This document shows positions 3,271-21,939 of a stretch of DNA of 64,000 nucleotides, in pieces. Location of the stretch: contig CAVYIE010000007.1 in assembly GCA_963768615.1 (NCBI GenBank), positions 1,356,648 through 1,420,647 of the forward strand, given 5' to 3'. The number at the start of each line of letters is the position of its first letter. Positions within the stretch are counted from its first letter, which is position 1. The DNA is from Candidatus Eiseniibacteriota bacterium (GTDB taxonomy: Bacteria > Eisenbacteria > RBG-16-71-46 > JABDJR01). The position numbers and the translations under genes are program-made. The notes below the pieces were generated by a model. It had not been told where the DNA came from. It ran no database searches and saw only the letters and a program-made list of their open reading frames with translations.

Positions 3271-4188
3271 TCATCCTTCCCCCCGTTCCAGGCTGTCGTG
3301 GATCCTCCGGTAGGAATCGTACCGGTGGGGGGCGATCCCCCCCGCCGCCACCGCCTCCTTGATCGCGCACCCCGGCTCGGCCAGGTGCCGGCAGTCCTGG
3401 AAGCGGCATTCCGGCGCCCGGCGGATCATCTCCGGGAAGTGCGCGGCCAGGGCCGACGGATCGAGCCCGGACAGGTCCAGCACCCTCAACCCGGGGCTGT
3501 CGACCAGGCTGCCTCCGCCGGGCAGGTCCAGCATCTCCACCCAGGTGGTGGTGTGGCGGCCCTTGCCGGTGCGGTCGCTGACCTCTCCCACCCGCAAGCC
3601 GGCCCCGGGAACCAGGCGGTTGATGAGGCTGCTCTTGCCCGCGCCCGAGGGCCCCAGGAGGACCCCGGTGCCGCCGCCGATCCGCGCCCGGAGCGCCTCC
3701 AGGCCCGCCCCGGTGCGCGCGGAGAGGAACAGGACCGGGTATCCCAGCTCCGGGTACACGCCCAGGCCGGGATGCTGCCGCACCGCCGGGTCCAGGTCCA
3801 CCTTGTTGAGGCAGACGGCGGCGGGAATGCCCGCGTGGGAAGCCAGCACCAGGTACCGGTCCAGGGTGGCCGGCTTCCATTCCGGATCGCGCACCGAGAG
3901 GACCACCGCGGCCAGGTCCAGGTTGGCGGCCAGGATCTGGCGCTTGCCCGGCCGTCCGGAGGCGGGCCGGCCGAGGGCGTTCCGCCGGGGAAGCACCTCC
4001 TCCATTTGGGCCTCGTCGCCGGCCAGGCTCACCCGCACCCGGTCCCCCACCGCCACCGGGTCCACCGACGCCGGGTCCCGGTGCCGGAGGCGCTTGGGCA
4101 GGTGGGCGGGCCGGTCCCGGCCTCCCACCCGCACGGTGAAGGCCCGGCTCCGGACCCGCACCACCAGACCTTCCGCTTGCGCCGTCAT
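3271..4188 (-). CDS. rsgA: Ribosome small subunit-dependent GTPase A
   Basis: Circularly permuted GTPase NKVD, GPSGAGKSS, GRHTT, DSPG; Zn finger CRFQDCRHLAEPGC. Confidence 0.95.
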   Translation of the reverse strand: MTAQAEGLVVRVRSRAFTVRVGGRDRPAHLPKRLRHRDPASVDPVAVGDRVRVSLAGDEAQMEEVLPRRNALGRPASGRPGKRQILAANLDLAAVVLSVRDPEWKPATLDRYLVLASHAGIPAAVCLNKVDLDPAVRQHPGLGVYPELGYPVLFLSARTGAGLEALRARIGGGTGVLLGPSGAGKSSLINRLVPGAGLRVGEVSDRTGKGRHTTTWVEMLDLPGGGSLVDSPGLRVLDLSGLDPSALAAHFPEMIRRAPECRFQDCRHLAEPGCAIKEAVAAGGIAPHRYDSYRRIHDSLERGEG

Positions 4189-4207
4189 GGTCGCCGAGTC
4201 TATGCGT

Positions 4208-5104
4208 TCACCGGTCCGGGCGGTAGCCGTGATCCGGCCGGTCCGGCGCGGCGGGGCCGGAGCGGGACCCGCAGCGGTAGGCATAGGCCTGGGTGAATTC
4301 GGCCCCGAAGAAGAGGATCTGGGCCGAGTAGTAGACCCAGATCAGGATCACGGCCAGGGAACCGGCCGCTCCGTAGCTGGAGGCGATGCTGGAGTTGCCG
4401 AGATAGAGCCCGATGGCGAACTTGCCCGCCGCGAACAGGACCGCGGTGAGCGCCGCCCCCCACCACACGTCCTTCCAGGCCACCTCGGTGTCGGGAATGT
4501 ACCGGAAGATGAAGGCGAAGAGGCCGGTGACCACGGCCAGGTCCAAGAGCACGTTCACCCAGCGGAGAAGGTCGAACCACTCCGGAAGCACCCCCCCGGC
4601 GAGGTGGCCGGCGGCGGAGAGGGCGGCGGAGATGACCAGCGAGGTGAGGAGGAGGAAGCCGGTGCCCAGCACCATGGCGAAGCTCACCGCCCGGTCCTTG
4701 AGGAGGGTCTGCCACCAGCTTCCCTTCCGTTCCCGGACCTTCCAAAGCATGTTCATGGCGTCCTGGAGCATGTTGAACACCCCCAGGGCGGCGAAGAAGA
4801 GCGCCCCCACCCCGATCGCCGTGGGGAGGATGCCCGCTCCGGGCCGGCGGGCGTTGCGGAGAAGGGCCGAGACCGCCTCGGCGCCCTGCTTCCCGATCAG
4901 TCCCCGGACCTGGTCCACGATCTCGCCCCGGGCCGCCTCCTCGCCGAACACGGCGCCGGCGATGGCGATGCCGATGACCAGGAGGGGGGCCAGGGAGAAG
5001 GCGGTGTAGAAGGCCAGGGCCGCGGCCAGGCGGTGGGCCCGGTCGGCCCGCCAGTCCAGGTAGGTGGTCTTGAGGAGCTCCCAGGCGGTGCGGTACCGGC
5101 TCAT
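4208..5104 (-). CDS. YihY/virulence factor BrkB family membrane protein
   Basis: AAALAFYTAFSLAP, YGAAGSLAVILIWVYYSAQILFFGAE. Confidence 0.93.
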   Translation of the reverse strand: MSRYRTAWELLKTTYLDWRADRAHRLAAALAFYTAFSLAPLLVIGIAIAGAVFGEEAARGEIVDQVRGLIGKQGAEAVSALLRNARRPGAGILPTAIGVGALFFAALGVFNMLQDAMNMLWKVRERKGSWWQTLLKDRAVSFAMVLGTGFLLLTSLVISAALSAAGHLAGGVLPEWFDLLRWVNVLLDLAVVTGLFAFIFRYIPDTEVAWKDVWWGAALTAVLFAAGKFAIGLYLGNSSIASSYGAAGSLAVILIWVYYSAQILFFGAEFTQAYAYRCGSRSGPAAPDRPDHGYRPDR

Positions 5105-5190
5105 GACGCTCCGCGGGATGGGGGCCGGCGGGACGGACTGCTCATACCGTCAGCATACCGGGCACCGGGTCCGCCGATCCAGCCGCGGTC

Positions 5191-6343
5191 TCAGTAGCGC
5201 GGGAGGGAGGGGTCGACCTCCTCCGCCCAGGCCAGGATGCCCCCGTGCAGGTTGGCCACCCGCGGGAAGCCGGCGTCCAGCAGCATCCGGGCCGCCCGGG
5301 CGCTTCGCACCCCGGACCGGCAGACCACCACGATCTCCGCCCCCCGGTCCAGCTCGTCCAGCCGCGCCGGGAGCTCGCCCAGCGGCACCGCGTGCGCCCC
5401 GGGGATGCGGGCGATCTCCAGCTCGAAGGGCTCGCGGACGTCGAGGAGGAGCACCGCGTCCAGGCGCCGCCGGAGCTCGCGCGACATTCATCTCCGGCAC
5501 CGCGGTCCCAGCGCCGGCGGCCCCGCAGAAGGCTTCGTAATCGATGAGGGAGGTGACGGTGGGGTGCTCCCCGCACACCGGGCAGGCCGGGTCCCGGGCC
5601 AGGCGGAGGGAGCGGAATTCCAGGGCCAGGGCGTCGAAGAGGAGGATGCGGCCCACCAGCGGATCCCCGATCCCCAGCAGCAGCTTGACCGTCTCGTTGG
5701 CCTGGAGGGTGCCGATGATGCCGGGGAGGATGCCGAGCACCCCCCCCTCGGCGCAGCTCGGCACCGAGCCCGGGGGCGGGGGCTCCGGGAACAGGCACCG
5801 GTAGCAGGGGCCCCGGGCGGCGTCGAACACCGCCACCTGCCCCTCGAAGCGGAACACGCTCCCGTAGACGTCGGGCTTTCCCAGCAGGACGCAGGCGTCG
5901 TTGACCAGGTAGCGGGTGGGGAAGTTGTCGGTGCCGTCCACCACCACGTCGTAGCCGTCCAGGATCCCGAGCGCGTTGTCCGAGGCCAGCCGGACCGGGT
6001 GGGGAACCACCTCCACGTGGGGGTTCACCGCCGCGATCTTCTCCCCGGCCGAGTCCAGCTTGGGGCGCCCGATGTCCCCGGTGGTGTGGATGATCTGGCG
6101 CTGGAGGTTGGTCTCGTCCACGGTGTCGAAGTCCACCAGCCCCAGCCGGCCCACCCCGGCCGCGGCCAGGTACAGGGCGAGGGGGGAACCGAGGCCCCCG
6201 GCCCCCACCAGGAGGACCGAGGAGCGCTTGAGGCGCTGCTGCCCCTCCTTGCCCACCTGGGGGATGAGGAGATGGCGGCTGTAGCGGCGAAGCTCCTCCA
6301 CGGAGAGCCCCGCGGCGGGTTCGCGGTGATCACGGTCGGTCAT
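5191..6343 (-). CDS. moeB: MoeB/ThiF E1-like adenylyltransferase with C-terminal rhodanese (MoeZ type); apparent frameshift near 5482
   Basis: RYSRHL, GAGGLG, SVFRFEGQ, CYRC, CPVC; the rhodanese (LLDVREPFE...CRSGVRS) continues in another frame after VPEMNV. Confidence 0.9.
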
Positions 6344-6780
6344 GCGGGGATCCCCCTTCCGGCCCTCTCTCCAGGATATCCCTCCAGGGGGACGGGATCG
6401 AAGCGGGAACGGTCCGGCCGCAGCCGCCAGGCCTCGGCGGTCCCCGCCCCGGCCAGGATGAGGTGCACGCAGCCCGGGAGCGCGTGGCGGCGATCGGTCC
6501 CGGAGGGGCGGCTTCCCCCTTCGGGGTGGGAGTGGTAGAACCCCACCACCTCCTCCCCCGCGCTCCGGGCGGCCAGCTCGGCGGCCAGATACTCCGCCGG
6601 GGCGATGCGGAAGCGGCCGCGGGCCCGGCCGGGGGCGGCGTTGGCCGCCCGCCGCACTCCGGTCACCCGGACGGGGCCGGGACCGGGGCGGCCGAGCAGG
6701 AACCCGCAGCACTCGCGGGGGCGCGCCTCGGCGGCATGGCGGCGGAGGCGGCGGAGGTCGCCGGCGGAGATGGCGAGCAC
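6340..6780 (-). CDS. JAB/Mov34 (M67) metallopeptidase, Mec+-like
   Basis: PRECCGFLLG and GFYHSHPEGGSRPSGTD (E...HxHx7Sx2D); stop overlaps the MoeZ start (ATGA); start codon uncertain. Confidence 0.88.
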   Translation of the reverse strand: MLAISAGDLRRLRRHAAEARPRECCGFLLGRPGPGPVRVTGVRRAANAAPGRARGRFRIAPAEYLAAELAARSAGEEVVGFYHSHPEGGSRPSGTDRRHALPGCVHLILAGAGTAEAWRLRPDRSRFDPVPLEGYPGERAGRGIPA

Positions 6781-6827
6781 GGGCGGAGGGTCGCCGGCGA
6801 AGCCGGGCGCGCTCTCCCGGGGCGGAT

Positions 6828-7901
6828 TCAGATCGACTCCGGCCGCCGGGGAAGGATCCTGAGGGCGCCGGCCGGACCTCCGGTCAGCCGCCCGATCACC
6901 GCCGCCGCGACGCCGGCCGCCTCCAGGGCCCGGGTGAGCGCGTCCGCCGAGGCCTCGGGGACGGCGAGCAGGAGCCCGCCGGAGGTCTGGGCGTCGGCCA
7001 GGATCAGGCGGTCGGCCTCGGCCAGGCCGGAATCGAACACGGCGCGGCCGTCCAGGTAGGCCAGGTTCTTCCGCGAACCGCCCGGGACCACCCGGTCGGC
7101 GATGAGCTCGCGGACCCGGGGCTCGAACAGGACCGGCACTTCCTTCGCCCACACCTCGGCCCCGGTGCCCGAGGCCCGGGCCAGCTCCAGGAGATGGCCG
7201 AGGAGGCCGTAGCCGGTGACGTCGGTGGCGGCGTGCACCCCCGCCTTCCGGGCCGCCTGGGCCGGAGCCCGGTTCAGGGTGGCCATCTGGGCCACCACCG
7301 CCTCGATCTCGTCCTCCGGGAGGCGGTCCCGCTTGATGGCGGTGGTGAGGATTCCCACTCCCAGGGGCTTGGTCAGCACCAGCAGGTCCCCGGCGCGCCC
7401 CCCGGAGTTGAGGAGGATCCGGTCCGGGTGCACCCGGCCGGTGACGGCCAGCCCGAACTTGGGTTCGGGGTCGTCGATGGAGTGGCCGCCCAGGACCGCC
7501 ACCCCGGCCTCGATGCACTTGTCCCCCGCCCCCTGCAGGATGCGGTGGAGGATGCCGGGGTCCAGGGTGTCGATGGGGAAGCCGACGATGTTGAGGGCCA
7601 TGAAGGGCTCGGCCCCCATGGCGTAGACGTCGCTCATGGCGTTGGCCGCGGCCACCGCCCCGAAGGCGTAGGGGTCGTTCACGACGGGGGTGAAGAAGTC
7701 CACGGTCTGGACCAGGGCCAGCTCGGGGCTCACCCGGTACACGCCGGCGTCGTCGGCGGTCTCGTTGCCGAGCAGCACGTTGGGATCGTCGAGTCTGGGA
7801 AGCCCTTCCAGCACCTGGACGAGCGCGCCTTGCGCGATCTTGCAGGCTCAGCCGGCGCCGTGGCTCAGGGAGGTCAGCTTGACCACGTCTTCTCCGCTCA
7901 T
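6828..7901 (-). CDS. selD: Selenide, water dikinase (selenophosphate synthetase); selenoprotein with UGA=Sec at 7850-7848
   Basis: ATG 7901 reads MSGEDVVKLTSLSHGAG-TGA-ACKIAQ in frame with DDAGVY, TVDFFTP, AANAMSDVYAMG, TDVTGYGL, DAQTSGGLL. Confidence 0.96.
7814..7846 (-). promoter_or_regulatory. Putative bacterial SECIS hairpin of selD
   Basis: 3' of the UGA: CCUG..GA..GCGC[AAGGC]GCGC UC..CAGG; apical loop starts 16 nt after the UGA. Confidence 0.55.
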
Positions 7902-7932
7902 GGGAGAAGGGTAGAGGGACCACGGTCCCCGG

Positions 7933-8346
7933 TCAACGTGGTCCGGTGGCCGGATCGGGTCCCGGGCGGGGCCAGAGCACGGCATGGAGCACGCCCCAGC
8001 CCAGGTCCACCGACCCCAGCACCAGGTAGAGCCAGGCCGCTCCGGGCCGGGCGGCGAGGGCGAGAAGGAGGAGGATCGCTCCCCCGGCGCTCCGGGCCCA
8101 CAGCACCGGGAACCGGAAGGGGCCCGGGTCGGGGGCCCGGGCCGCGGCCAGGTAGAGGGCGGGCAGCACCAGGAGCGGAAGGGCGGCCAGCCGGAGGTGG
8201 AAGGCCCCCGGCGGAACCGGCGCCCCCAGGGCGGCCAGGACCGCGGGGCCGGCGGCGAGGATGAACGCCCCCAGGACCAGGTCGTAGGCCGCCCCCGCGA
8301 CCAGGCTCCCCCGGAGGGCGCCCTCCCGTCCCCGGCCGGTGGTCAC
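7933..8346 (-). CDS. Small hypothetical membrane protein (~4 TM)
   Basis: Hydrophobic C-terminal part of ORF 7933..9744; GTG start overlaps the OPT stop (GTGA). Confidence 0.75.
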   Translation of the reverse strand: MTTGRGREGALRGSLVAGAAYDLVLGAFILAAGPAVLAALGAPVPPGAFHLRLAALPLLVLPALYLAAARAPDPGPFRFPVLWARSAGGAILLLLALAARPGAAWLYLVLGSVDLGWGVLHAVLWPRPGPDPATGPR

Positions 8347-10313
8347 CGCTTCCGCGCCCCCGAGGTGGCGCTCATGAAGAGGAGGATCATCACCCCGACC
8401 AGCAGCACCGCCCCCGGCCAGGCGAAGGGCTGGGTCTCGAAGAGGGCGAAGATGTTCCGGCCGAAGGCGACCAGGGGAAGGGCGAGGAGGATGCCCACCA
8501 GCGCCTCCCCGGTGATGAGCCCGGAGGCGAAGAGGAGCCCGTTCCGGTCCGAGACCTCCGCCACCTCGGGACGGGTGCGCGCTCCGCGGTTGAGCTGGTA
8601 GTTGCGGGCCGCGTGGGAAACGAGCCCCCCCAGGAAGATGGGCACCGAGAGCTCGATGGGGAGGTAGATCCCCACCGCCACCGCCAGCACCGGGGCCCGG
8701 AAGCTGGAGCCCCGGGCGCGGAGCATCTGGTCGAAGATGATGATGGCCACCGCGATCACCGCCCCGATCATGGCCATGGTCCAGGGCAGCCCGCCCCGGA
8801 ACACCCCCTCGGCCACGCTGGCCATGAGGGTGGCCTGGGGCGCGGTGAGCGGGTTGGGGTGCTCGGGGGTCGGAGCGCCGATCCCGTACCCCTTCAGCAG
8901 CAGGGTCAGCACCGGAGCCATCACGAAGGCCGAGGTCACCGTGCCCAGCACCTGGGCCACCTGCTGCTTCCAGGGCGTGGCCCCCAGGATGTGCCCCGCC
9001 TTCAGGTCCTGCATGTTGTCCCCGGCGATGGCGGCGGCGCAGCAGACCACCGCCCCGATGAAGATGGCCGCCGAGGGCCCCACGTGGCTCTCGGTCCCCA
9101 TCAGCGCCACCAGGAGGAGCGAGGCGCTGAGGATGGTGGCGATGGTCACCCCGGAGATCGGATTGTTGCTGGACCCCACCAGCCCGGCCATGTAGGCGGC
9201 CACGGCGCTGAACAGGAACCCGGCCACCAGCATCAACACCGCCATGAGGAGGGACACCGCCACGACCTTCACCACGTACAGGTAGACCAGGAAGATGGGG
9301 ATCACCGAGAGGGCGATGGCCCCGAGCACGTAGGGCATGGGGGTGTCGAGCTCGGTGCGGGGAACGGCCCGCGCGCCGGGCCCGGCGTGACGGAAGGTGG
9401 CGATCCCGCTCCGGATGCCCAGGGCCAGGGACCCGCGCAGGTTGACCAGGGCCCACAGGCCGCCCACCACCATGGCCCCGATCCCCATGTAGCGGATGTA
9501 GTGGCTCCAGATCCAGTTGGCCGCGTCGGCGGCGGCCATCGGTTCGGGCAGCGCCCCCCGGCCGTGCTGGATCAGCCACCAGGGGATGCCGATGAACCAG
9601 CTGATCGCGCCCCCGGCGAAGACCAGGACCGAGATGTTGAGCCCGACGATGTAGCCCACGGCCAGGAGCGCGGGGGAGAGGTTGCTCCCCACGTAGCCCA
9701 CCCCCCGGCCCAGGTACCGCGCCTTCTCGTAGGTCGCGGTCCATAGGTTCAGCCCCGCCTCCCCGAACTTGAACAGGGCCCCCACCGCCGCCGCCCAGGC
9801 CAGGTACTTGACCGCGGAACCGCCCTTCTCGCCGCTGGTCAGGACCTCGGCCGTGGCCACCCCCTCGGGAAAGCGCAGCGGCTGCTCCACGATGAGCGCC
9901 CGCCGGAGGGGAATGGTGAAGAACACCCCGATCACCCCGCCCAGGGCGGCGATCATGGTGGTCTCCCAGTAGTCGAAGTGCTGCCAGTAGCCGAGGATGA
10001 CCAGGGCGGGGAGGGTGAAGATCACCCCCGCGGCCAGCGATTCCCCGGCCGAGGCCGCGGTCTGGACCAGGTTGTTCTCCAGCACGTTCGACTTGCGGAA
10101 GAGCCGCAGCACGGCCATGGAGATGACCGCGGCCGGGATGGAGGCGCTCACCGTCATGCCCGCGAAGAGCCCCAGGTAGGCGTTGGCGCTGGCCAGGGCC
10201 ATGGAGAGGACGATGCCCAGCACCAGGGCCTTGGGGGTGAGCTCGGGGAGCCGGGTTTCCGCCGGAATCCGGGGCTCGTCGGCGGCGGGGGTCGGACGGG
10301 CGGATTCACCCAT
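8343..10313 (-). CDS. OPT family oligopeptide transporter
   Basis: ANAYLGL..GMTVSASIPAAVIS, ENNLVQTAASAG, LRFPEGVATAEVL, SNNPISG, DNMQDLKAG, APQATLM. Confidence 0.97.
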   Translation of the reverse strand: MGESARPTPAADEPRIPAETRLPELTPKALVLGIVLSMALASANAYLGLFAGMTVSASIPAAVISMAVLRLFRKSNVLENNLVQTAASAGESLAAGVIFTLPALVILGYWQHFDYWETTMIAALGGVIGVFFTIPLRRALIVEQPLRFPEGVATAEVLTSGEKGGSAVKYLAWAAAVGALFKFGEAGLNLWTATYEKARYLGRGVGYVGSNLSPALLAVGYIVGLNISVLVFAGGAISWFIGIPWWLIQHGRGALPEPMAAADAANWIWSHYIRYMGIGAMVVGGLWALVNLRGSLALGIRSGIATFRHAGPGARAVPRTELDTPMPYVLGAIALSVIPIFLVYLYVVKVVAVSLLMAVLMLVAGFLFSAVAAYMAGLVGSSNNPISGVTIATILSASLLLVALMGTESHVGPSAAIFIGAVVCCAAAIAGDNMQDLKAGHILGATPWKQQVAQVLGTVTSAFVMAPVLTLLLKGYGIGAPTPEHPNPLTAPQATLMASVAEGVFRGGLPWTMAMIGAVIAVAIIIFDQMLRARGSSFRAPVLAVAVGIYLPIELSVPIFLGGLVSHAARNYQLNRGARTRPEVAEVSDRNGLLFASGLITGEALVGILLALPLVAFGRNIFALFETQPFAWPGAVLLVGVMILLFMSATSGARKR

Positions 10314-10460
10314 TCACGCGCCTCCTTGTCGGCTGGGGGTTCGCGGCCTCCCCCCCCGGGAACGGGGGGCGGGGGCGGGGGACGCGGTCCCCCGCCCGGA
10401 CCCGCGTACCTTAACCAAGAGCGGGGCCGGAGACAACGTCCGCCCCGCTCCCGGCTCCGA

Positions 10461-11309
10461 TCAGGACCCGGCCGCCCGCGCCACCGCGGCCTTGAAGTCG
10501 GCGAAGCCCGAATCCTTCTCCTCCAGCCCGGACTTGGGGGGCAGCTTGTCGATGAGACTCTGGGTGTAGCTGATCCGGTCCTCGGTCAGGGGATGGCTGG
10601 CGAAGAACTGCTCGAGGGCCCCCGGCTTCTGCTGGCGCATGTCGAGGAGGACCCGGAAGAACTGCACCATGCCCTCGGGGTCCACCCCGGCGTCGTACAT
10701 GTAGCGCACTCCCAGCTTGTCCGCCTCCTCCTCGGCGTCCCGGCTGAACTTGGACACCGCCCCGTTGGCCAGCACCGAGGCCAGGATCTGCTCGTAGACG
10801 GCGGGGTTCCGGCCCAGGACGAGCGAGGCCACGATGGAGATGCCGTACTGCTTGGTCAGGTTCTCCACCCCGTGGCGGGCGAGGCCGTGGGAGACCTCGT
10901 GGGCCATGACCCCCTCCAGCTCGTCGTAGCGGGCGGCGGCGGCCACCAGTCCCGAGTTCAGGTAGACGTGTCCCCCGGGGATGTTGAAGGCGTTGACCGT
11001 CTCGTCCTGGATGACGTGGAAGTCCCAGGGCTGGTCCGCCACCGGGGTGTCGCCCTTGGCCGCCTGCACGATCCGCTCCCCCATCCGGGTCACGTACTGC
11101 TTGATGGCGGGGTCGTCGAGGAGGCGCTTCTGCTGGGCGACGTCCGCGGCCAGGGAATCGCCCAGCTGCCATTCCTCGCCGATGGAGATGAGGCTCAGGT
11201 CGCCCTTGTTGATCCCGCTGGTGGCGCAGCCGAGGAATCCCCCCAGGGCGGTGAGGGCCAGGGGGAACAGCCAGGCGCGAAGGCGCCGCGGGGACGATGC
11301 GAGGTTCAT
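10461..11309 (-). CDS. M48 family zinc metalloprotease, lipoprotein
   Basis: Lipobox-like FLGC, VNAFNIPGG, HEVSH, SRDAEEEAD, FASHP. Confidence 0.93.
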   Translation of the reverse strand: MNLASSPRRLRAWLFPLALTALGGFLGCATSGINKGDLSLISIGEEWQLGDSLAADVAQQKRLLDDPAIKQYVTRMGERIVQAAKGDTPVADQPWDFHVIQDETVNAFNIPGGHVYLNSGLVAAAARYDELEGVMAHEVSHGLARHGVENLTKQYGISIVASLVLGRNPAVYEQILASVLANGAVSKFSRDAEEEADKLGVRYMYDAGVDPEGMVQFFRVLLDMRQQKPGALEQFFASHPLTEDRISYTQSLIDKLPPKSGLEEKDSGFADFKAAVARAAGS

Positions 11310-11404
11310 GATCGTTTCCTTCCGCTCGGGGCCGGGGCCCCATGATTTCAACCGGCGCTATCCGGGAGCCGCGGAAGCGGAGACCGCAACCCGGGCTCCC
11401 CTCC

Positions 11405-12106
11405 CTATTGAAACACGTTCCGGTAGAGGTTCACCACCAGGTCCACCCCCCGCTCCAGACCGACCCGTTCCAGGTTCAGCATCAGGTCGTAGGCCTCCGG
11501 ATCGGTGATGTCGCGGTGGATGTACCGTTCCACGAAGCCGGCCCGCTCCTTGTCGGTCCGGGCGACCAGTTCCCCGGCCTCCTCCCGGTCCATCCCCTGC
11601 AGGCGGACCACCCGGCGCACCCGGAAGTCGAAACCGGCCACGGTGCGCACGTGGAGTCCGGGCTCCCCGTCGAGGATGAAGTTCGCCCCCCGGCCCACCA
11701 CCACCGCGGAGCCGGTGCGGGAGATGGTGATGAGCGCCTTGCCCAGGGACCGGACGTAGTCCTCCCCGCTCACCAGCCGGTTGTGGAGCACCCCGTCCAC
11801 CCACTGTTCGATGCCGCTCCGGGTGTGCTGATCCAGAGCCTCCAGGACCCCCTTGTCCACCCCGGACTCCTCGGCCACCACGTCGATCATCTCATGGTCC
11901 ATGAGCGGGTAGCCGAGCCGGACCGCCACCATCTCGGCCAGTTCGGTTCCCCCGCTTCCGATCTGGCTGGACACGGTGACGATCGGACGCAGCGGGCCCT
12001 CGGGCGCGGCCGGCCGGGTCCGGCCCTCGGCCTCCTTGGCCGCCTTCTGCTCCAGGATCCACCGGTGGATCTGGTTCTCGATGAGCTTCCGCGATTCTCC
12101 CTTCAT
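11405..12106 (-). CDS. Cytidylate kinase-like family protein
   Basis: VTVSSQIGSGGTELA, VVGRGANFIL, YDLMLN. Confidence 0.88.
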   Translation of the reverse strand: MKGESRKLIENQIHRWILEQKAAKEAEGRTRPAAPEGPLRPIVTVSSQIGSGGTELAEMVAVRLGYPLMDHEMIDVVAEESGVDKGVLEALDQHTRSGIEQWVDGVLHNRLVSGEDYVRSLGKALITISRTGSAVVVGRGANFILDGEPGLHVRTVAGFDFRVRRVVRLQGMDREEAGELVARTDKERAGFVERYIHRDITDPEAYDLMLNLERVGLERGVDLVVNLYRNVFQ

Positions 12107-12229
12107 GGCCTCACCGCCTCCTTTCCCCCGATCATTCTAACCTGAAAAGTCCTTGTCAGGAGCCCGTGGAGTGGCTAATGTGCGCGACACACTTCACCTC
12201 CGGCCTGCGGACAATCCCCGGGAGAGCGA

Positions 12230-13339
12230 ATGGTACAAGGCAAGCGCTCGACGTTTCGGCGCCTCTTCGAGCCCCGCGGGCTTCTCCCCGCTCTCTGCGT
12301 GCTCTCCCTGCTCCTCCTTCCCCTCCTCCCGTCCCGGCCGGCCGCCGCCCAGACCCCTCCCGCCGACAGCGCCGGAGCCGACACCGGCGGCATCGTCTCG
12401 CCCGCCCGTCCTCCCCTGGAGGCCACCCAGTCCGCCCTGGACACCCTGGCCGGCGAGACCCCGGTGGGCGTCCCGGACCAGGCGTCTCCTCCCCTGACCG
12501 TGGCCGAGGCCCGGGAGCGGGGGCCGAAGTACTTCTTCACCAACCGGTTGAACCTCCTGGTCATCCTCCTGATCGTGGGCGGCGCCATCTTCACCTACAC
12601 CCTCCGGGCTACCCGCGGGGTGTCCTACAAGATCCGGCGCATCGCCGGCATCGACGCCATCGAGGAAGCGGTGGGCCGGGCCACCGAGATGGGCAAGCCG
12701 GTGCTGTTCATCCCCGGCATCCAGGACCTGGACAACGTGCAGACCGTGGCCGGCGTCACCATCCTGTCCTCGGTGGCCGGCCGCATCGCCGAGTACGACG
12801 CCCGGCTGGCCGTGCCCACCTCCCGCTCGCTGGTCATGACCACCGCCCGGGAGACGGTGAAGGAGGCCTACTCCGCCGCCGGACGGCCCGACGCCTACAA
12901 CGACGACATGATCTACTACGTGACCGACGAGCAGTTCGGTTACGTAGCCTACCTGGACGGCTACATGGTCCGGGAGAAGCCCGCCACCTGCATCTACATG
13001 GGCGCCTTCTTCGCCGAGTCCCTGATCCTGGCCGAGACCGGCTACTCGGTGGGGGCGATCCAGATCGCGGGTACGGCCATGCCCACCCAGCTTCCCTTCT
13101 TCGTGGCCGCCTGCGACTACACCCTGATCGGCGAGGAGCTCTTCGCCGCCAGCGCCTACCTCAGCCAGGACCCGCGACTCCTGGGCAGCCTCCGGGGGCA
13201 GGACTTCGGGAAGCTGTTCGCCATGGTCTTCATCGCCCTCGGCAGCCTGGTAGTCACCGTGGACGTGGTCTCGGGCGGGGTCTTCCACGGGCTGGCCGAC
13301 TGGCTCGTCAACGTCGTCTTCACCGTCGTGCAGCACTAG
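12230..13339 (+). CDS. DUF6754 domain membrane protein (gene 1 of uncharacterised 4-gene operon)
   Basis: Signal peptide, low-complexity linker, TM, then IRRIAGIDAIEEAVGRATEMGKPV...ESLILAETG...QLPFF...DYTLIGEELFAASAYLS; family name from recall. Confidence 0.8.
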   Translation: MVQGKRSTFRRLFEPRGLLPALCVLSLLLLPLLPSRPAAAQTPPADSAGADTGGIVSPARPPLEATQSALDTLAGETPVGVPDQASPPLTVAEARERGPKYFFTNRLNLLVILLIVGGAIFTYTLRATRGVSYKIRRIAGIDAIEEAVGRATEMGKPVLFIPGIQDLDNVQTVAGVTILSSVAGRIAEYDARLAVPTSRSLVMTTARETVKEAYSAAGRPDAYNDDMIYYVTDEQFGYVAYLDGYMVREKPATCIYMGAFFAESLILAETGYSVGAIQIAGTAMPTQLPFFVAACDYTLIGEELFAASAYLSQDPRLLGSLRGQDFGKLFAMVFIALGSLVVTVDVVSGGVFHGLADWLVNVVFTVVQH

Positions 13340-13348
13340 GAGGACCTC

Positions 13349-14029
13349 TTGCTCCGCGTCACCATCCCAGTCTTCATCGCCTCGGTGGTGGGGGTTCTCC
13401 TGGTCCTGGCCATGTTCTTCCCTCCCCTCCACGGGGCGGACAACTATTTCTCCCAGTGGTTCGACATCATCGCCGCGGTGGCCTTCGCCCTCGGCGGCGG
13501 GAACCTGCTCCGCATCCACCTGGAGAAGCTCTACCGCCGGAAGCCGGGCTGGTGGTACAGCCTGGTCACCCTGGGCGGGTTCTTCTTCACCCTTCTCGCC
13601 GGCCTGTTCAAGATCGGGAATCCCCAGGGCTGGCAGGGGAACGTGAACGCCCAGGGCTCGCTGTTCAACTTCGCCTACGACGGGATGTTCACCCCGCTCC
13701 AGGCCACCATGTTCTCCATCCTCGCCTTCTTCGTGGCCTCGGCCTCCTACCGCGCCTTCCGGGCCCGGAACGTGGAGGCCTCCCTGCTCCTGGGGGCGGC
13801 GTTGATCATCCTCCTCGGCCGGACCTTCGTGGGGGCGTGGATGACCGCCTGGCTTCCTCCTTCCCTCGACTTCCTCACCGTTCCCAACCTGTCCAACTGG
13901 ATCATGTCCACGATCAACCTGGCCGGCCAGCGGGCCATCCTCATCGGCATCAGCCTGGGGGTGATCTCGACCTCGCTCAAGATCATCCTCGGCATCGAAC
14001 GGTCCTACCTGGGCGGGAGGGAGTCCTGA
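13349..14029 (+). CDS. Hypothetical integral membrane protein (~6 TM), gene 2 of DUF6754 operon
   Basis: TTG start after AGGAGG; ATMFSILAFFVASASYRAFRARN. Confidence 0.85.
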   Translation: MLRVTIPVFIASVVGVLLVLAMFFPPLHGADNYFSQWFDIIAAVAFALGGGNLLRIHLEKLYRRKPGWWYSLVTLGGFFFTLLAGLFKIGNPQGWQGNVNAQGSLFNFAYDGMFTPLQATMFSILAFFVASASYRAFRARNVEASLLLGAALIILLGRTFVGAWMTAWLPPSLDFLTVPNLSNWIMSTINLAGQRAILIGISLGVISTSLKIILGIERSYLGGRES

Positions 14030-14030
14030 G

Positions 14031-14906
14031 ATGAGGTCCTTCCTGCAGAGCATGGGCCGGCTGGACCGGCGCTGGATCTTCCTGACCATCGCCCTGGCCG
14101 TGATCATCCCCCTCGCCCTCCACCTGGTGTTCCCCGTACTCACCAGCCCCATCGTTCAGAACATCTTCGACAAGGTGGACAGCCTGCCCCCCGGGTCCAA
14201 GGTGCTGATCTCCGCCGACTACGGCCCGAGCACGGTGCCGGAGAACCAGCCCATGCTGGATGCGGTGGCCCGGCACGCGCTGCACAAGGGTCTAAAGGTC
14301 TACTTCATGAGCCTGTGGGCCACCGGCCCGCCCATGCTGGTGCAGATGAAGCACGACGTCATCGACAAGGACTTCCCCGGCCTGGACCAGGGGACGGACT
14401 GGATGAACCTGGGCTATCAGGCCGGCAACCAGGGCGTGATCAACTCCGCCTACGCCGACTTCAAGGTCGCCTTCCCGGTGGACTCCCGGGGCGAGAACAT
14501 CCACACCGTGCCCATGATGAAGGGCATCCACCGGCTGGCCGATTTCGACCTGATCGTCGGCATCGGCTCCGGGTTCCCCGGGGTCAAGGAGTGGATCCAG
14601 TTCGGGGGCGACCCGGCCGGGGTGCCGGTGGCGGGCGGGGTGACCGCGGTGGAGGCGCCGCTCCTCTATCCGTACTACCCGAAGCAGCTCCTGGGGCTGA
14701 TGGGCGGCCTGCAGGGGGCGGCGGAGTACGAGGCGGCCCTGGTGGCCAGGTACCCGCAGTACCAGGCCACCTCCACCCAGGCCATCCAGCGCATGGGACC
14801 GCAGACCGTGGCCCACCTCGTCATCATCGGATTCATCATCATCGGCAACATCGCCTACCTGGCCGGCGGGCGTGAGAAGCCGCGACTGGGGGTGGGACAG
14901 CGATGA
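14031..14906 (+). CDS. Hypothetical protein with N- and C-terminal TM helices and a soluble domain, gene 3 of DUF6754 operon
   Basis: Starts 1 nt after the previous stop; DRRWIFL TM, GGLQGAAEYE, AHLVIIGFIIIGNI. Confidence 0.85.
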   Translation: MRSFLQSMGRLDRRWIFLTIALAVIIPLALHLVFPVLTSPIVQNIFDKVDSLPPGSKVLISADYGPSTVPENQPMLDAVARHALHKGLKVYFMSLWATGPPMLVQMKHDVIDKDFPGLDQGTDWMNLGYQAGNQGVINSAYADFKVAFPVDSRGENIHTVPMMKGIHRLADFDLIVGIGSGFPGVKEWIQFGGDPAGVPVAGGVTAVEAPLLYPYYPKQLLGLMGGLQGAAEYEAALVARYPQYQATSTQAIQRMGPQTVAHLVIIGFIIIGNIAYLAGGREKPRLGVGQR

Positions 14907-15604
14907 GCTTCGGATCCGGATTGGAACTCTGGGTCGGGGCCCTCCTGACCTTCATGATCTTCTCGTTCCTGTACAAGGACAACCCGTTCTACAAGTTCGC
15001 CGAGCACCTCTTCGTGGGGGTCAGCGCCGCCTACTGGATGGTGCAGGGCTTCTGGGCCACCCTGATGCCGAACCTCTTCGGGCGCCTCTATCCGCCCATG
15101 GTGCGGTTCGCGCTCCCCTCCATCGCCGACAACAAGCCGGACCTGCTCCAGCTCATCCCCCTCATCTTCGGGCTGCTCCTCCTCACCCGGCTCATCCCCC
15201 CCCTGGCCCAGCTCTCGCGGCTGGCCATGGGCCTGATCATCGGCTTCACCGCCGGGACCAACCTCACCCGCTACCTCCAGTCGGATTTCGTGTCCCAGAT
15301 CGGACACACCATGGCCCCCCTGGTGGTGACCCACCCCCAGGGCGGGTTCTCCCTCGGCGCCTCCTTCTCGAACATCGTGATGGTCACCGGGGTGCTGTCC
15401 GGACTGGTGTACTTCTTCTTCTCCAAGGAACGGACCGGGGCCACGGCCCGGCTCAGCCGCTACGGGATCTACGTGCTGATGATCTCCTTCGGCGCCTCCT
15501 TCGGCTACACGGTGATGGCCCGTATCTCGCTCCTCACCGGGCGCATGGAGTTCCTGGGCCGCTGGCTCAGCCAGGGCATCCCCTGGCTCTTCGGCGGCTT
15601 CTGA
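14903..15604 (+). CDS. Hypothetical integral membrane protein (~6 TM), gene 4 of DUF6754 operon
   Basis: ATGA overlap with gene 3; FLYKDNPFYKFAEHLFVG, LMISFGASFGYTVMAR. Confidence 0.85.
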   Translation: MSFGSGLELWVGALLTFMIFSFLYKDNPFYKFAEHLFVGVSAAYWMVQGFWATLMPNLFGRLYPPMVRFALPSIADNKPDLLQLIPLIFGLLLLTRLIPPLAQLSRLAMGLIIGFTAGTNLTRYLQSDFVSQIGHTMAPLVVTHPQGGFSLGASFSNIVMVTGVLSGLVYFFFSKERTGATARLSRYGIYVLMISFGASFGYTVMARISLLTGRMEFLGRWLSQGIPWLFGGF

Positions 15605-15770
15605 CCGTCTCCGACTCCACCCCTTGCGCCCCGGCACCGCCGGGGCGTCTTCGTCTCCGGTCGCGAGCGGGCTTTCCGTTTGCCGGGCCCTCGGGGACGA
15701 GGTGTATAGTTGAAGGACGGACTTCAAGCGTTGGCCTCATGACGGACACATTCATCGGGAGGTGGAAGGA

Positions 15771-16903
15771 ATGGCCCAGAACCCCTTACTGCAGCTGAAG
15801 GAGCACGGACAGAGCGTGTGGCTGGACAACCTGACCCGCGCCATGCTCCGGGAGGGCCGGCTCGAGGCCCTGATCAAGGACGACGGGATCAGCGGGGTGA
15901 CCTCGAACCCGTCCATCTTCAACAAGGCCATGACCAAGGGGAACGCCTACGACGACCAGTTCCGCGAGCTGGCCGACAAGGGCCTGGAGACGGGGAAGAT
16001 CTACGAGGCCATGGCCGTCCGCGACATCCAGGGCGCCGCCGACCTCCTCCGCCGGGCCTACGACGACTCCAACGGGACCGACGGCTACGTGAGCCTGGAG
16101 GTTTCCCCCACCTGGCCCGGGACACCGACGGCACCATCGCCGAGGCCCGCCGCCTGTGGAAGGAGGTCGACCGGCCCAACGTGCTGATCAAGATCCCGGG
16201 CACTTCGGAGGGCGTCCCCGCCATCCGGCAGTGCCTGGCCGAGGGGATCAACATCAACATCACCCTCCTCTTCTCCCTCGACGCCTACCGGGAGGTGATG
16301 GAAGCCCATCTCCAGGCCATGGAGGACCGCAAGAAGAAGGGGGAATCCCCGGCCCAGGTGGGCTCGGTGGCCAGCTTCTTCCTGAGCCGGATCGACGTGA
16401 AGGTGGACAAGATGCTGGACGCCATGAAGGACCGGGGCGAGCACGCCGAGGAGGCCAAGGCCCTCCGGGGCACCGCCGCCGTGGCCAGCGCCCGCCTCGC
16501 CTACCAGCTGTGGAAGGAGACCTACGCCGGTCCGCGCTGGGAGGCCCTCCGGGCCGCCGGAGCCCGGGTCCAGAAGCCCCTCTGGGCCAGCACCTCGACC
16601 AAGGACCCCGCCTACCCGGACGTGAAGTACGTGGAGACGCTGATCGGCCCCCAGACCGTCAACACCATGCCCGACGAGACCGTGGACGCCTTCCGGGACC
16701 ACGGCCGGGTCGAGGACACGGTGGAGCGGGATCTCGAGGAGCAGCGCTCGGTCCTGGCCCGGCTGGAGAAGATCGGGATCTCCATGAAGCAGGTCACCGA
16801 CGAGCTGGTGGACGAGGGGATCGAGAAGTTCAACCAGCCCTTCGACGAGCTGATGGAAGCCCTGGAGGAGAAGCGGAAGTCCCTGTCCGGAACCCGGGGC
16901 TGA
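15771..16903 (+). CDS. tal: Transaldolase; apparent frameshift (one C missing in the run at 16105-16109)
   Basis: GQSVWLD, GVTSNPSIF, GYVSLEVSP then frame change to HLARDT, NVLIKIPGT, INITLLFS, ASFFLSRID, LWASTSTK. Confidence 0.95.
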
Positions 16904-17489: not shown

Positions 17490-18587
17490 CTACTGGGAGC
17501 TGGACTCCGATGGAACCTCCTGGGCCACTTCCGCGCGGGCGCCGGCCCCGGGGAGTCCCGCCCGGGCCTGGGCCATGTCCTGCTCGAAGCGGCCGGCCAG
17601 CGCGGCCAGGTCCACGGGTTCGGTCCCTGGAAGGTCGTCCAGGAGCCTCACCCGGGCCAGGTTCGCCGCCGCCCGGTTATGCCCGGGATCGGCGTCGAGA
17701 GCGGCAGCGTAGGTCCCGGCGGCGGCGCGGAAGTGGCCGGTCCGCTCCAGGGCCAGCCCGAGGTTGTTCCGGAACACCGCCACCGTGCCGTCCACCTGTA
17801 CCGCCCGGGCCAGCGGGGGGAGCGCCTGCTCAGCCTGGCCGCCCTGCAGGTAGAGCAGTCCCAGGTTGTTCATGGACCACGCGTCGCCGGGGTCCAGGCG
17901 CACCGCCCTCCGGTAGGCCGCCTTGGCCTCCTCGTTGCGGTTCAGGTTCTGATACGCGCGGCCGAGCACCCGCTGGGCGTCGGCGGAACGGGGATCCAAG
18001 GCGGCAGCCTGCTCGGCGACGACTCGGGCGTCCCGGAAGCGACCCTCGTCGATCAGCACACGGGCCAGGTTGGTGCGGCCCTCCAGGTGCATCGGATCCC
18101 GTTCCACGGCGGCGTGGAACGCCGCCTCTGCGTCCTCCCAACGCCCCGCCTTCCACAAGGAGAGCCCCAGCATGGTGTGGCCCCAGGCGCTTTCGGGGTG
18201 CTCCTTGGTCCAGACGGCGAAGTGCTCGGCCGCGTCGTCGTAACGGCCCTCCTCGAGGAGGGCCTTGGCCTCGGCGAAGCTCCCCGGATCCTCGGATCCG
18301 GCCTGCTCCCGGGCCTCGTTCTCCATCGGGGACGTCCCGGCGCCGGCGGGGTCGTCCACCCCCGCCACGGCGGCGCCGGTCGTCGGCTCCTCGCCCGGAG
18401 CGGTCCCGGTATGGGCCGGGACGGCCTCGGGCGCCGGCGCCTGGTTGCGGGCGACCGGAGAGGCGGTGCCCTCCTCCCGTCCCCCACACCCGACGGCGCT
18501 CAGGGCAACCCCCAGCGCCACGGTCAGAGTCAGTGCCCCCAGAAAGACTCCCACCGGTTTCCACGAAGTTTTGATGATCGCGAGCAT
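17490..18587 (-). CDS. Tetratricopeptide-repeat lipoprotein
   Basis: Signal peptide ending AVGC, Pro/Ala linker, several TPRs (e.g. SMNNLGLLYL, FRNNLGLALE). Confidence 0.88.
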   Translation of the reverse strand: MLAIIKTSWKPVGVFLGALTLTVALGVALSAVGCGGREEGTASPVARNQAPAPEAVPAHTGTAPGEEPTTGAAVAGVDDPAGAGTSPMENEAREQAGSEDPGSFAEAKALLEEGRYDDAAEHFAVWTKEHPESAWGHTMLGLSLWKAGRWEDAEAAFHAAVERDPMHLEGRTNLARVLIDEGRFRDARVVAEQAAALDPRSADAQRVLGRAYQNLNRNEEAKAAYRRAVRLDPGDAWSMNNLGLLYLQGGQAEQALPPLARAVQVDGTVAVFRNNLGLALERTGHFRAAAGTYAAALDADPGHNRAAANLARVRLLDDLPGTEPVDLAALAGRFEQDMAQARAGLPGAGARAEVAQEVPSESSSQ

Positions 18588-18821: not shown

Positions 18822-20178
<1,357 letters not shown>

Positions 20179-20182
<4 letters not shown>

Positions 20183-21939
20183 GCTCGCCCTCCCTTGGCG
20201 GGCAACCGGACGGTGAACCGGGCGCCCCCGGCGGGCCCGTTCCCGGCCCGGACCGTCCCGTCCAGGTCGGAGACCAGGCGGCGCACGATGGAGAGGCCCA
20301 GCCCGGCTCCGGACTTCTTGGTGGTATAGAAGTCGTTGAAGATATCATCCAGGTGTTCGGCGGGGATACCGGGCCCGGTGTCGCTCACCGAGAGCTGGAC
20401 CTGGCTCCCGCCGTCGTCCCCGGCGGCGCGTCCCGTGGCCACGGTCACCGTGCCGCCCGCCTCGCCGAGGCTCTCCACCGCGTTGCGGATCAGGTTCTCC
20501 AGGATCCTGCGGATGGCCACCGGGTCCGCCTGCACCGGCGGCAGTTCCGGATCCGGTTTCATCTCCAGGGTCACCCGTTCCGGTCCCGAGAAGGCGGCCC
20601 GGACCTGGTCCAGGGTGTCGTTCACGTTCCAGGTCACCGGAGCCCCGGTGACCGAGAGCCGGGCGTAGTGATGGGCGAGAAGCTCCAGGTACTCCAGGCT
20701 CTGCTCCACGCTCTCCTGGCGCTCGGCGAACACCCGCGCCAGCCCCTCCGGCTTCTCCCGGGCCACCTGGCGCAGGTGCCGGAAGGTGTTGCGGAGCGGG
20801 GTGAGCCCGTTCCAGATGTCGTGATTGACCTGCCGGGCCATGTCCCCCTGGGTGGCGCGGCGTTCGGCGTCCCGAAGCCGCTCCGCGCTCGCCCGCAACC
20901 GCCGCATCATGTCGGCCAGGAAGCGGCTCAGGGTTCCCACCTCGTCCCGGCGCCGGCTCTCGAACCGGCCGTCGAGGTGGTCCAGGTCCAGGGTCTCGGT
21001 CCGCCGGGAGAGATCGACGATGGGCCGGCTGATGGCGGCCGAGAACCACACGGCCAGGATCAGGGTGCCCAGGGCGGTGGCGGCCAGGGCCCCGGCCAGC
21101 CAGGCGTCCAGGCTCCGGAGCAGGCGGTGGAGCGGCCCCAGGGGATAGCTGATCAGCACCTGGGCCTCGGCCAGGCGGGCCGGCTCGCTGCCCGTGACCA
21201 CGAAGGGGATGGACAGGCTGCGCACCAGGTACCGGTCGCGGGGCAGGACCGTCCGCCAGGAGGCCCCCTTCCCGCTGTCGGGCAGGGCGGCCAGGCGGAC
21301 GGCGAGGGAGTCGTCCGAGGACAGGGCGTCTCCCGGTACCAGGAGCGACACCGCCAGCTCCCGGTCCCGGGCCAGGCCGGAGAGGAAGCTCCGGTCCACC
21401 TGCATTCCGCCCACCACGGAGAAGGTCTCTCCGGCCATGGAGAAGCGCTCCAGGCGGGCCAGGGCGAGGAAGCTGCCCGTGGCCAGCCGGGCCCGGGTGA
21501 GGGCGGTGGAATCGGGCGCCTCGGCCAACCGGCGGGGCAGCCCCGGCTCCCGCCGGTCGTACTCGTTCCGGAAGTGCCCGGAGCTCAGGATCCGCCCCGA
21601 GGAGTCCTGGATCTGGAGCATGGAGAGGCCCATCAGCCCCATGGCGCGTCCGGCGTAGTCGAGCAGGTAGGTCCGCTCGCTGGCAATGCCCGCCACCGCG
21701 GCCAGCCGGAACTGGTTGTCGTCGACGATCCGGGGGACCAGGATGGCCAGCCGGGTGTCCACCGACCGCCCCCGCTCGCCCAGGTTCTCCTGGATCACCT
21801 CGGCCAGGGTTTCCACCCGGCGGTCGTACTGCTCGGACAGGCGGCGGGACATCTCCTGCCGGATACCGAGGGCGAGCAGGGCCAGGGGCACCAGGACCAG
21901 GATGGTGGACGCGGCCAGGATGCGCAGCCGGAGGCTCAA
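20179..21939 (-). CDS. Membrane sensor histidine kinase (2 TM, periplasmic domain, HAMP, HisKA, HATPase)
   Basis: TTG start overlaps the SBP stop; QVNHDIWNGL H-box, NLIRNA, DTGPGI, FYTTK, GLGL. Confidence 0.92.

Follow-up and report, generated by a model that had tools for sequence, protein, structure and literature searches.

A four-gene DUF6754 operon of Eisenbacteria that looks like a self-contained, antiparallel inner-membrane complex

Four kinds of described membrane system come closest to the one presented here. In the GldF/GldG pair of gliding-type ABC-2 systems, the bitopic GldG, with its transmembrane (TM) ends around a periplasmic alpha/beta domain, stands beside GldF, a ~6-TM permease of ~230 aa. 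The KTN/RCK transporters (Trk, Ktr, Kef, and MthK) carry six-stranded Rossmann-like cytoplasmic domains on membrane subunits, EmrE-type SMR pairs and Fluc are antiparallel, dual-topology-derived partners that are clear sequence homologues, and the Type VII ABC mechanotransmission systems (MacB, FtsEX, and LolCDE) join a cytoplasmic engine to periplasmic domains that act on envelope macromolecules. Here we describe four adjacent genes, G1 to G4, in a stretch of 64,000 nucleotides (the window) of a Candidatus Eiseniibacteriota genome (assembly GCA_963768615.1, contig CAVYIE010000007.1), which look like an operon for a four-subunit complex of the inner membrane that is self-contained and lacks any characterised relative. 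The complex has two modules of one design, each made of a bitopic protein (TM helix, Rossmann-like domain, TM helix) and a ~6-TM protein, and our data support an antiparallel arrangement, in which the half made of G1 and G2 faces one way and that made of G3 and G4 the other. The four genes and the hexamer at their first junction are:

12230..13339, plus strand: G1, the DUF6754 subunit, 369 aa (open reading frame (ORF), Pfam PF20539)
13339..13344, plus strand: Shine-Dalgarno-like hexamer GGAGGA, overlapping the G1 stop codon and 4 nt ahead of the G2 TTG
13349..14029, plus strand: G2, the 6-TM subunit, 226 aa, TTG start (ORF, TM prediction)
14031..14906, plus strand: G3, the bitopic subunit with a periplasmic Rossmann-like domain, 291 aa (ORF, alignment, AlphaFold2 (AF2) model)
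14903..15604, plus strand: G4, the ~6-TM subunit, 233 aa (ORF, alignment)

The initial annotation of this DNA had described four tightly coupled genes, and both the coordinates and the letters of the three junctions agree with it. G1 ends in TAG, followed by GGAGGA and the TTG of G2 across a 9-nt gap (read directly in the sequence), G2 and G3 are separated by one nucleotide (TGA-g-ATG), and G3 and G4 overlap in ATGA. A promoter and terminator scan was uninformative: its sole outputs were a promoter-like sequence on the minus strand and a terminator-like one within G2, at or below the shuffle expectation. The G1 protein belongs to Pfam DUF6754 (PF20539; 395.8 bits against a gathering score of 27 bits, E 8.6e-119, residues 100-346), a family without a described function, and nothing above noise was obtained for G2, G3, or G4 in Pfam or NCBIfam, nor with PDB sequence profiles. 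The absence of an ATPase, redox, or enzyme motif, also claimed before, was borne out by the Pfam, NCBIfam, and PADLOC searches, in which no such family appeared. No known anti-phage defence system was recognised, as no PADLOC model matched any of the four proteins (0 families at E<=0.01). A literature search (without supplements) found no publication on DUF6754 or PF20539, no publication on an Eisenbacteria membrane complex was found either, and the parts of the Eisenbacteria genome and metabolism literature that we consulted contained nothing about this complex. No characterised complex fits the four genes and no characterised system can be named as their kind.

The pairing of a bitopic protein with a ~6-TM protein is that of GldF/GldG (ABC_transp_aux, PF09822), which unlike the present system has an ATPase and has no extra inverted module with a cytoplasmic domain. 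Neither the PF09822 nor the ABC-2 models matched G3, G2, or G4, and a GldG-like identity of G3 was discarded (no PF09822 match at E<=1; hhalign against the genome's own PF09822 protein, 0.2%). The likeness to EmrE and Fluc lies in adjacent genes whose partners are inserted in opposite orientations, but here the G1/G3 and G2/G4 pairs do not score above shuffled controls and each half has a large soluble domain. The likeness to Type VII ABC systems is one of logic only, a conserved cytoplasmic part acting with periplasmic domains, since an ABC ATPase gene is not consistently present and no match to the FtsX or MacB families was found. The operon resembles the KTN/RCK transporters in having a six-stranded Rossmann-like cytoplasmic domain on membrane subunits, and differs from them in that no glycine-rich dinucleotide motif is visible by eye in G1, in that the domain lies between two TM helices with a second such domain outside, and in the lack of a TrkH/KtrB-type pore subunit.

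The four genes behave as one unit. By BLAST, the order G1-G2-G3-G4 is found in 32 arrays (31 fetched loci plus the window) from Eisenbacteria, Zixibacteria, and a Planctomycetales genome, the exceptions being L029 (9732-14610), where a complete operon is directly followed by an extra solo G1 gene, and L018, which is cut by the contig end. In a Zixibacteria contig (L021, 32-8043) three operons follow one another in tandem, of which the first is truncated at the locus edge. A filter of 80% coverage for every one of the four proteins leaves 29 arrays, and in these the proteins' pairwise identities correlate (r 0.88-0.93), which indicates that the arrays diversify as blocks. The genome of the window holds a second, diverged operon in the same order (identities of 56, 39, 31, and 39% for G1 to G4), and in the G1 tree the window copy and this paralogue fall into different members of two deep clades (support 98/98), both of which also contain Zixibacteria copies. 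Among 201 sampled Eisenbacteria genomes, DUF6754 was found in 183 and the G3 profile in 182 (both tallies include genome G015, with one match each); 179 genomes have both, four G1 alone, three G3 alone, and 15 neither. The family is thus near-universal in this candidate phylum. G1 and G3 each have 1-9 matches per genome, and for 53 of the first 56 genomes listed the two numbers agree.

Furthermore, the family occurs in 42 of 151 sampled Planctomycetota genomes, some of them assembled as a single contig, and the gene order is kept in nine of ten fetched loci of this phylum, two of which have ~1.2 kb inserted after G1. In two Planctomycetota operons (L048, 9904-10380, and L049, at the same position) an extra ORF of ~158 aa without a Pfam match lies between G1 and G2. 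The tenth locus belongs to a genome (G247) in which the four genes are scattered but all retained, at 0.29, 2.30, 3.48, and 3.53 Mb of one contig. Relatives are also present in Zixibacteria, Eremiobacterota, Armatimonadota, Chloroflexota, and others, according to source names and ESM Atlas taxa, and none of 14 well-known control genomes has the DUF6754 family. Similar operons, which the initial annotation had mentioned for uncultured anaerobes, are indeed common among uncultured bacteria in the genome surveys. The conservation of the four genes as a unit in several phyla speaks for a membrane complex of different subunits. A four-chain complex prediction with G1 as partner scored 0.70 in three runs, 0.00 in both partner-replaced controls, and 0.67 in the control with chain 3 replaced, and it thus counts neither for nor against binding. 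The earlier proposal of an undescribed heteromeric complex is supported as far as the conserved unit, the opposite orientation of the halves, and the lack of a characterised match are concerned, and not supported as far as it took the subunits of each pair for recognisable homologues.

The orientation of each subunit was deduced from its charge distribution and from its relatives. In G1, the parts follow each other as a signal peptide, a low-complexity outside linker, TM1, the cytoplasmic Rossmann-like domain, TM2, and a short outside tail:

12230..12349, plus strand: predicted G1 signal peptide, aa 1-40 (hydrophobic segment 17-35; A-A-A before Q41, cleavage site by eye)
12548..12604, plus strand: G1 TM1, aa 107-125 (TM prediction; AF2 helix 9-33 of the trimmed model)
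12605..13213, plus strand: six-stranded Rossmann-like cytoplasmic domain of G1 (alignment, AF2)
13214..13270, plus strand: G1 TM2, aa 329-347 (TM prediction, AF2)

The N-terminus of G1 has the signal-peptide-like segment and a stretch rich in lysine and arginine (K/R) directly follows TM1 (K+R counts), which places the N-terminus outside and the DUF6754 domain inside; RHS repeats after TM2 in P0023, a G1 protein, fit an outside C-terminus. G3 runs from a cytoplasmic N-terminus with an invariant RR through TM1 (aa 16-34), a periplasmic domain (aa 35-259), and TM2 (aa 260-278) to a K/R-rich cytoplasmic C-terminus. Its short ends carry 4.0 (N) and 4.2 (C) K+R, a distant relative (P0242) has a zinc ribbon and a long tail before TM1 and no signal peptide, and two G1 proteins (P0099 and P0114) have a permuted G3-like domain in their heads, behind the signal peptide, all of which place the G3 domain outside. 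The same evidence, together with the secreted G1 heads, sustains the original assignment of the gene 1 domain to the cytoplasm and of the gene 3 domain to the outside. In P0099 and P0114 the G3 domain within the outside head is apparently circularly permuted, and in P0241 it is duplicated in tandem within one protein.

TM prediction agrees with the earlier view of genes 2 and 4 as ~6-TM proteins. G2 has both termini inside, with 11.5 K+R in inside loops vs 4.0 outside, and in G4 the K+R bias is weaker. Three G3-G4 fusions (P0284, P0297, and P0364) are joined by exactly one extra TM helix and, as the G3 C-terminus is cytoplasmic, the N-terminus of G4 must lie outside.

AF2 models were built on our own alignments for G1 (trimmed) and G3 only, with pLDDT of 86 and 91, respectively. 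Both show a TM helix, a helix, six strand-helix units, and a TM helix, with a six-stranded Rossmann-like sandwich, so that the TM-soluble domain-TM layout proposed for genes 1 and 3 reappears as the same order of elements. Against the PDB, Foldseek returned generic alpha/beta matches only for either model (TM score <=0.35). The best VIA matches were at Z 10.0 for G1 (5ojn; root-mean-square deviation (rmsd) 3.8, 142 aligned), with many ties, and at Z 10.4 for G3 (1kjn_B, rmsd 3.7, 141 aligned); sirtuins, KTN/RCK domains, GT-B halves, SDRs, and transhydrogenase dIII lie within one Z unit of the best. KTN/RCK was by our own count the most frequent VIA class (13 entries in the G1 top 50 and nine in that of G3), for example 6i8v for G1 (Z 9.7, rmsd 3.0, 116 aligned) and 3l4b for G3 (Z 9.2, rmsd 3.4, 128 aligned), with several such chains at Z 8.7-9.7, tied within one Z unit with unrelated Rossmann families. 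Sixteen entries are common to the top-50 lists of G1 and G3 (also our own count), and the ESM Atlas gave unnamed clusters only. Both modelled domains thus resemble one and the same flavour of Rossmann fold, of no nameable family.

This resemblance does not extend to sequence. Genes 1 and 3, which had been aligned by eye, reached a profile-profile (hhalign) probability of 0.8%, and block-shuffled controls of the soluble domains scored at least as high as the real pair in 27 of 30 cases when aligned globally and in 20 of 30 when aligned locally; the pieces aligned by eye fall on equivalent elements (helix 5, strand 6, and helix 6) and are no evidence of homology. The similarity seen by eye between genes 2 and 4 fared no better (hhalign probability 0.2%), nor were internal repeats significant when the halves of G2 (3.3%) or of G4 (12.9%) were compared. 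No sequence signal of true inverted repeats, as first suggested, was found with profiles, shuffles, or halves. An origin of the system, as a membrane machine of a new class, by duplication and topology inversion of an ancestral pair, a bitopic Rossmann-domain protein plus a 6-TM protein, is in our view unlikely; the DUF6754 domain would then be a hitherto unknown energy- or ligand-coupling module in place of ABC ATPases or RCK rings, and the machine would drive envelope work in many uncultured phyla.

Conservation is distributed unevenly over the two faces of the membrane. The cytoplasmic face, made of the DUF6754 domain and the conserved cytoplasmic loops of G2 and G4, is nearly invariant, and all lineage-specific additions are on the periplasmic face: G1 heads (FN3-like, beta-propeller, RHS), a G2 loop insert, and HEAT- and Ig-like inserts in G3. 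The G1 domain is the most conserved part of the system, with a mean column identity of 59% and 46 invariant columns (alignment A1), which include the motifs GRATEMG, AESL, AGT, QLPFF, and DYTLIGEE. When the 46 invariant residues are mapped by hand onto the AF2 model, ~17 of them come to lie at the C-terminal ends of the strands or immediately behind them, where Rossmann-like domains usually have their ligand crest; invariant crest residues include E168, T187, D201, E207, and E208 (numbering of the trimmed alignment). By eye, strand 1 is followed by P-G-[ILT]-x-D/G..., with a single invariant glycine (G68) and no GxGxxG. A P-loop in G1 was considered and dropped, as GRATEMGK precedes strand 1 instead of following it (by eye), and so was a HAD-type DxDxT after strand 1, whose residues are not conserved or stand in the wrong position (by eye).

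We tentatively read the complex, with low confidence, as an envelope-directed transducer or translocon rather than as a small-solute carrier; DUF6754 would bind a ligand in the cytoplasm, and the complex would act on a macromolecule in the envelope or outside the cell. In such a mechanism, the DUF6754 domain would bind its ligand at the predicted crest of C-terminal strand ends and dock on the loops of G2 and G4, and what the complex hands across the membrane, be it a conformational change or a substrate, would reach the G3 domain and the binding modules that face outwards, with a glycan or protein of the envelope or the extracellular space as target. The loops concerned carry conserved motifs on the side assigned to the cytoplasm, namely YRAFRAR (after TM4) and GIERSYLGG (C-terminus) in G2, and KDNPFYKFAEH and YFFFS-EHKG in G4, whose third conserved motif is FGASFGYTVMARISLL.

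A first alternative takes the operon for an ion- or gradient-coupled secondary transporter or channel for small solutes, in which the antiparallel halves would form the pathway, G3 would be a tethered substrate-binding domain, and DUF6754 an RCK-like gate. The two ~6-TM subunits of opposite orientation and the frequency of KTN/RCK domains among the structural neighbours speak for it. So does the lack of an ATPase in the operon or consistently adjacent to it; an ATP-driven transporter finds no ATPase subunit either in the operon (Pfam, NCBIfam) or consistently beside it. The up to nine diverged copies per genome and the tandem arrays, as in substrate-specific transporters, and the peptide transporters near some loci also fit. 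However, searches of Pfam, NCBIfam, and PDB sequences recognised no transporter family, neither G2 (3%) nor G4 (13%) showed an internal repeat, and the alignments of both proteins contain no conserved acidic residue inside the membrane. Conserved polar residues in the membrane are few, and there is thus no positive sign of ion coupling; the only invariant polar residues within the membrane are H262 and N273, in TM2 of G3. Moreover, the invariant residues of the G3 domain are held across paralogues, contrary to what varied substrate specificities would lead one to expect, large outside protein-binding modules are unusual for solute carriers, and the linkage to OPT and M48 genes is found in close relatives only. 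A small-solute transporter is therefore considered rather improbable, if still the first of the alternatives.

In the same searches, known permease families including ABC-2 gave weak and scattered Pfam matches to G2, in at most five of 30 members per family, and no Pfam family matched more than one of 29 G4 members. The best of them, Pfam DUF4149, matched three of 30 G2 homologues (best E 1.6e-6, alignment A3), which could reflect either a true remote relationship to this 4-TM family or hydrophobic similarity alone.

The outside additions bear on two other explanations. A conserved head of ~100 residues is present in 29 of 39 distinct G1 copies and reads, in our own reading, as D-x-P-N-D-x-G-G...W...Y-Y-Y-R-V. 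Pfam fn3 matches the longer G1 forms, which also carry PQQ-like beta-propellers, and was not significant on the two short-headed proteins tested. The window G1 has an Ala/Pro-rich linker (aa 41-~100) in place of the FN3-like head of most relatives. The G2 homologue of G247 (L057:580-2403) is enlarged to 607 aa, since its outside loop 3 takes up an insert of ~380 aa that has a helical look and repeated T/P-E-Q motifs. By eye, the G3 domain takes inserts near residue 112 that look like HEAT-type and Ig-type repeats; the G3 homologues, 1121 matches in one search and 5451 representatives at 50% clustering (E<=1e-3) in another, are annotated throughout as hypothetical, none with a Pfam domain. A vWA MIDAS motif in G3 was dropped, as its residues are not conserved or are wrongly positioned (by eye).

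The complex could be a transmembrane receptor or signalling complex, whose outside modules and G3 would sense an envelope or extracellular cue, with DUF6754 relaying it to a second messenger or a partner in the cytoplasm. Sensors typically combine variable modules outside with a conserved core inside, the many diverged copies per genome agree with this, and the conserved crest of the cytoplasmic Rossmann-like domain would suit a small ligand. But no output domain (kinase, cyclase, or DNA-binding) is fused or consistently adjacent, four subunits with ~16 TM helices go far beyond what signalling needs, and the window G1 has no sensory head, all of which makes a receptor unlikely in our view. Less probable still is a passive anchor or scaffold, which would display the outside modules of G1, G2, and G3 or connect the inner membrane with the wall or the outer membrane, and would go through neither a catalytic nor a transport cycle. 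The outside decorations are binding modules (FN3-like, beta-propeller, HEAT-like, Ig-like, and RHS) and no energy source was found, but it leaves unexplained both why the cytoplasmic domain is the most conserved part and why head-less copies are retained.

Returning to the envelope-directed transducer or translocon, the gene neighbourhood adds some hints. Glycan-related genes lie within ~6 kb in nine of the 31 loci, a count made without background control; two NTP-transferases stand directly upstream in L026 and L035, L040 has a GT-C-like gene upstream, and in the paralogous operon of the window's own genome (L003, G000:C7:795000-809000, 3997-12994, minus strand) a GT2 glycosyltransferase is located 22 nt upstream of G1. 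In addition, one G1 protein (P0007) is fused to a GT-C-like domain. Among 201 flanking ORFs of the 31 other loci, Pfam revealed neither a partner common to them nor an ATPase that is adjacent throughout, and the only ABC ATPases among them (L027 and L043) are within other transporter operons.

Several points weigh against this preferred reading. The neighbourhood signal is weak and lacks a background control, and peptidases and peptide (Opp-type) transporters are about as frequent as the glycan-related genes. No classical nucleotide-binding motif is visible by eye in the G1 alignment, and Rossmann-like folds tie with many unrelated families (Z 9-10), so that no ligand can be named. The window G1 and its paralogue have no folded outside head, which makes the head dispensable, and the several diverged copies per genome also fit substrate-specific transporters or sensors.

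With three of the four protein families absent from Pfam, there are three new families and a defined operon to name, in a system that reaches 183 of the 201 Eisenbacteria genomes with up to nine copies. An antiparallel four-subunit complex without a recognisable energy source represents a sizeable annotation blind spot in environmental bacteria and, if it were a new way of handling envelope polymers or of transport, our view of the physiology of these phyla would have to be revised.

In the window, a cytidylate-kinase-like gene, an M48 peptidase, and an OPT transporter lie upstream on the opposite strand, and a transaldolase lies downstream. These neighbours recur only in the closest relatives (4-5 loci; OPT and M48 in four loci each). 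The link to peptides or amino acids that had been drawn from OPT and M48 is not upheld, because these neighbours are confined to close relatives and no partner is common to the 31 other loci.

The paralogous operon in L003 is preceded on the same strand by the GT2 gene, a DUF2270 membrane protein, an unknown protein of 373 aa, and a MutL/GlmL-like PF13941 protein, and an Opp-type peptide ABC transporter lies on its 3' side. The PF13941 gene and the unknown one also adjoin the operon as a pair in L041, L042, and L043.

Finally, the transaldolase (window 15762-16903) is split over two frames, with the N-terminal part from 15762 and the rest in the frame 15818-16903. The frame switches near 16106-16110, where five C stand in a row, while the gene is intact in relatives (368-402 aa), the split being probably a homopolymer sequencing error and not a pseudogene. 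Downstream of it, a TPR-repeat protein (17490-18587, minus strand) and a sigma-54-dependent response regulator (18822-20348, minus strand) are syntenic only in close relatives (L014-L016).

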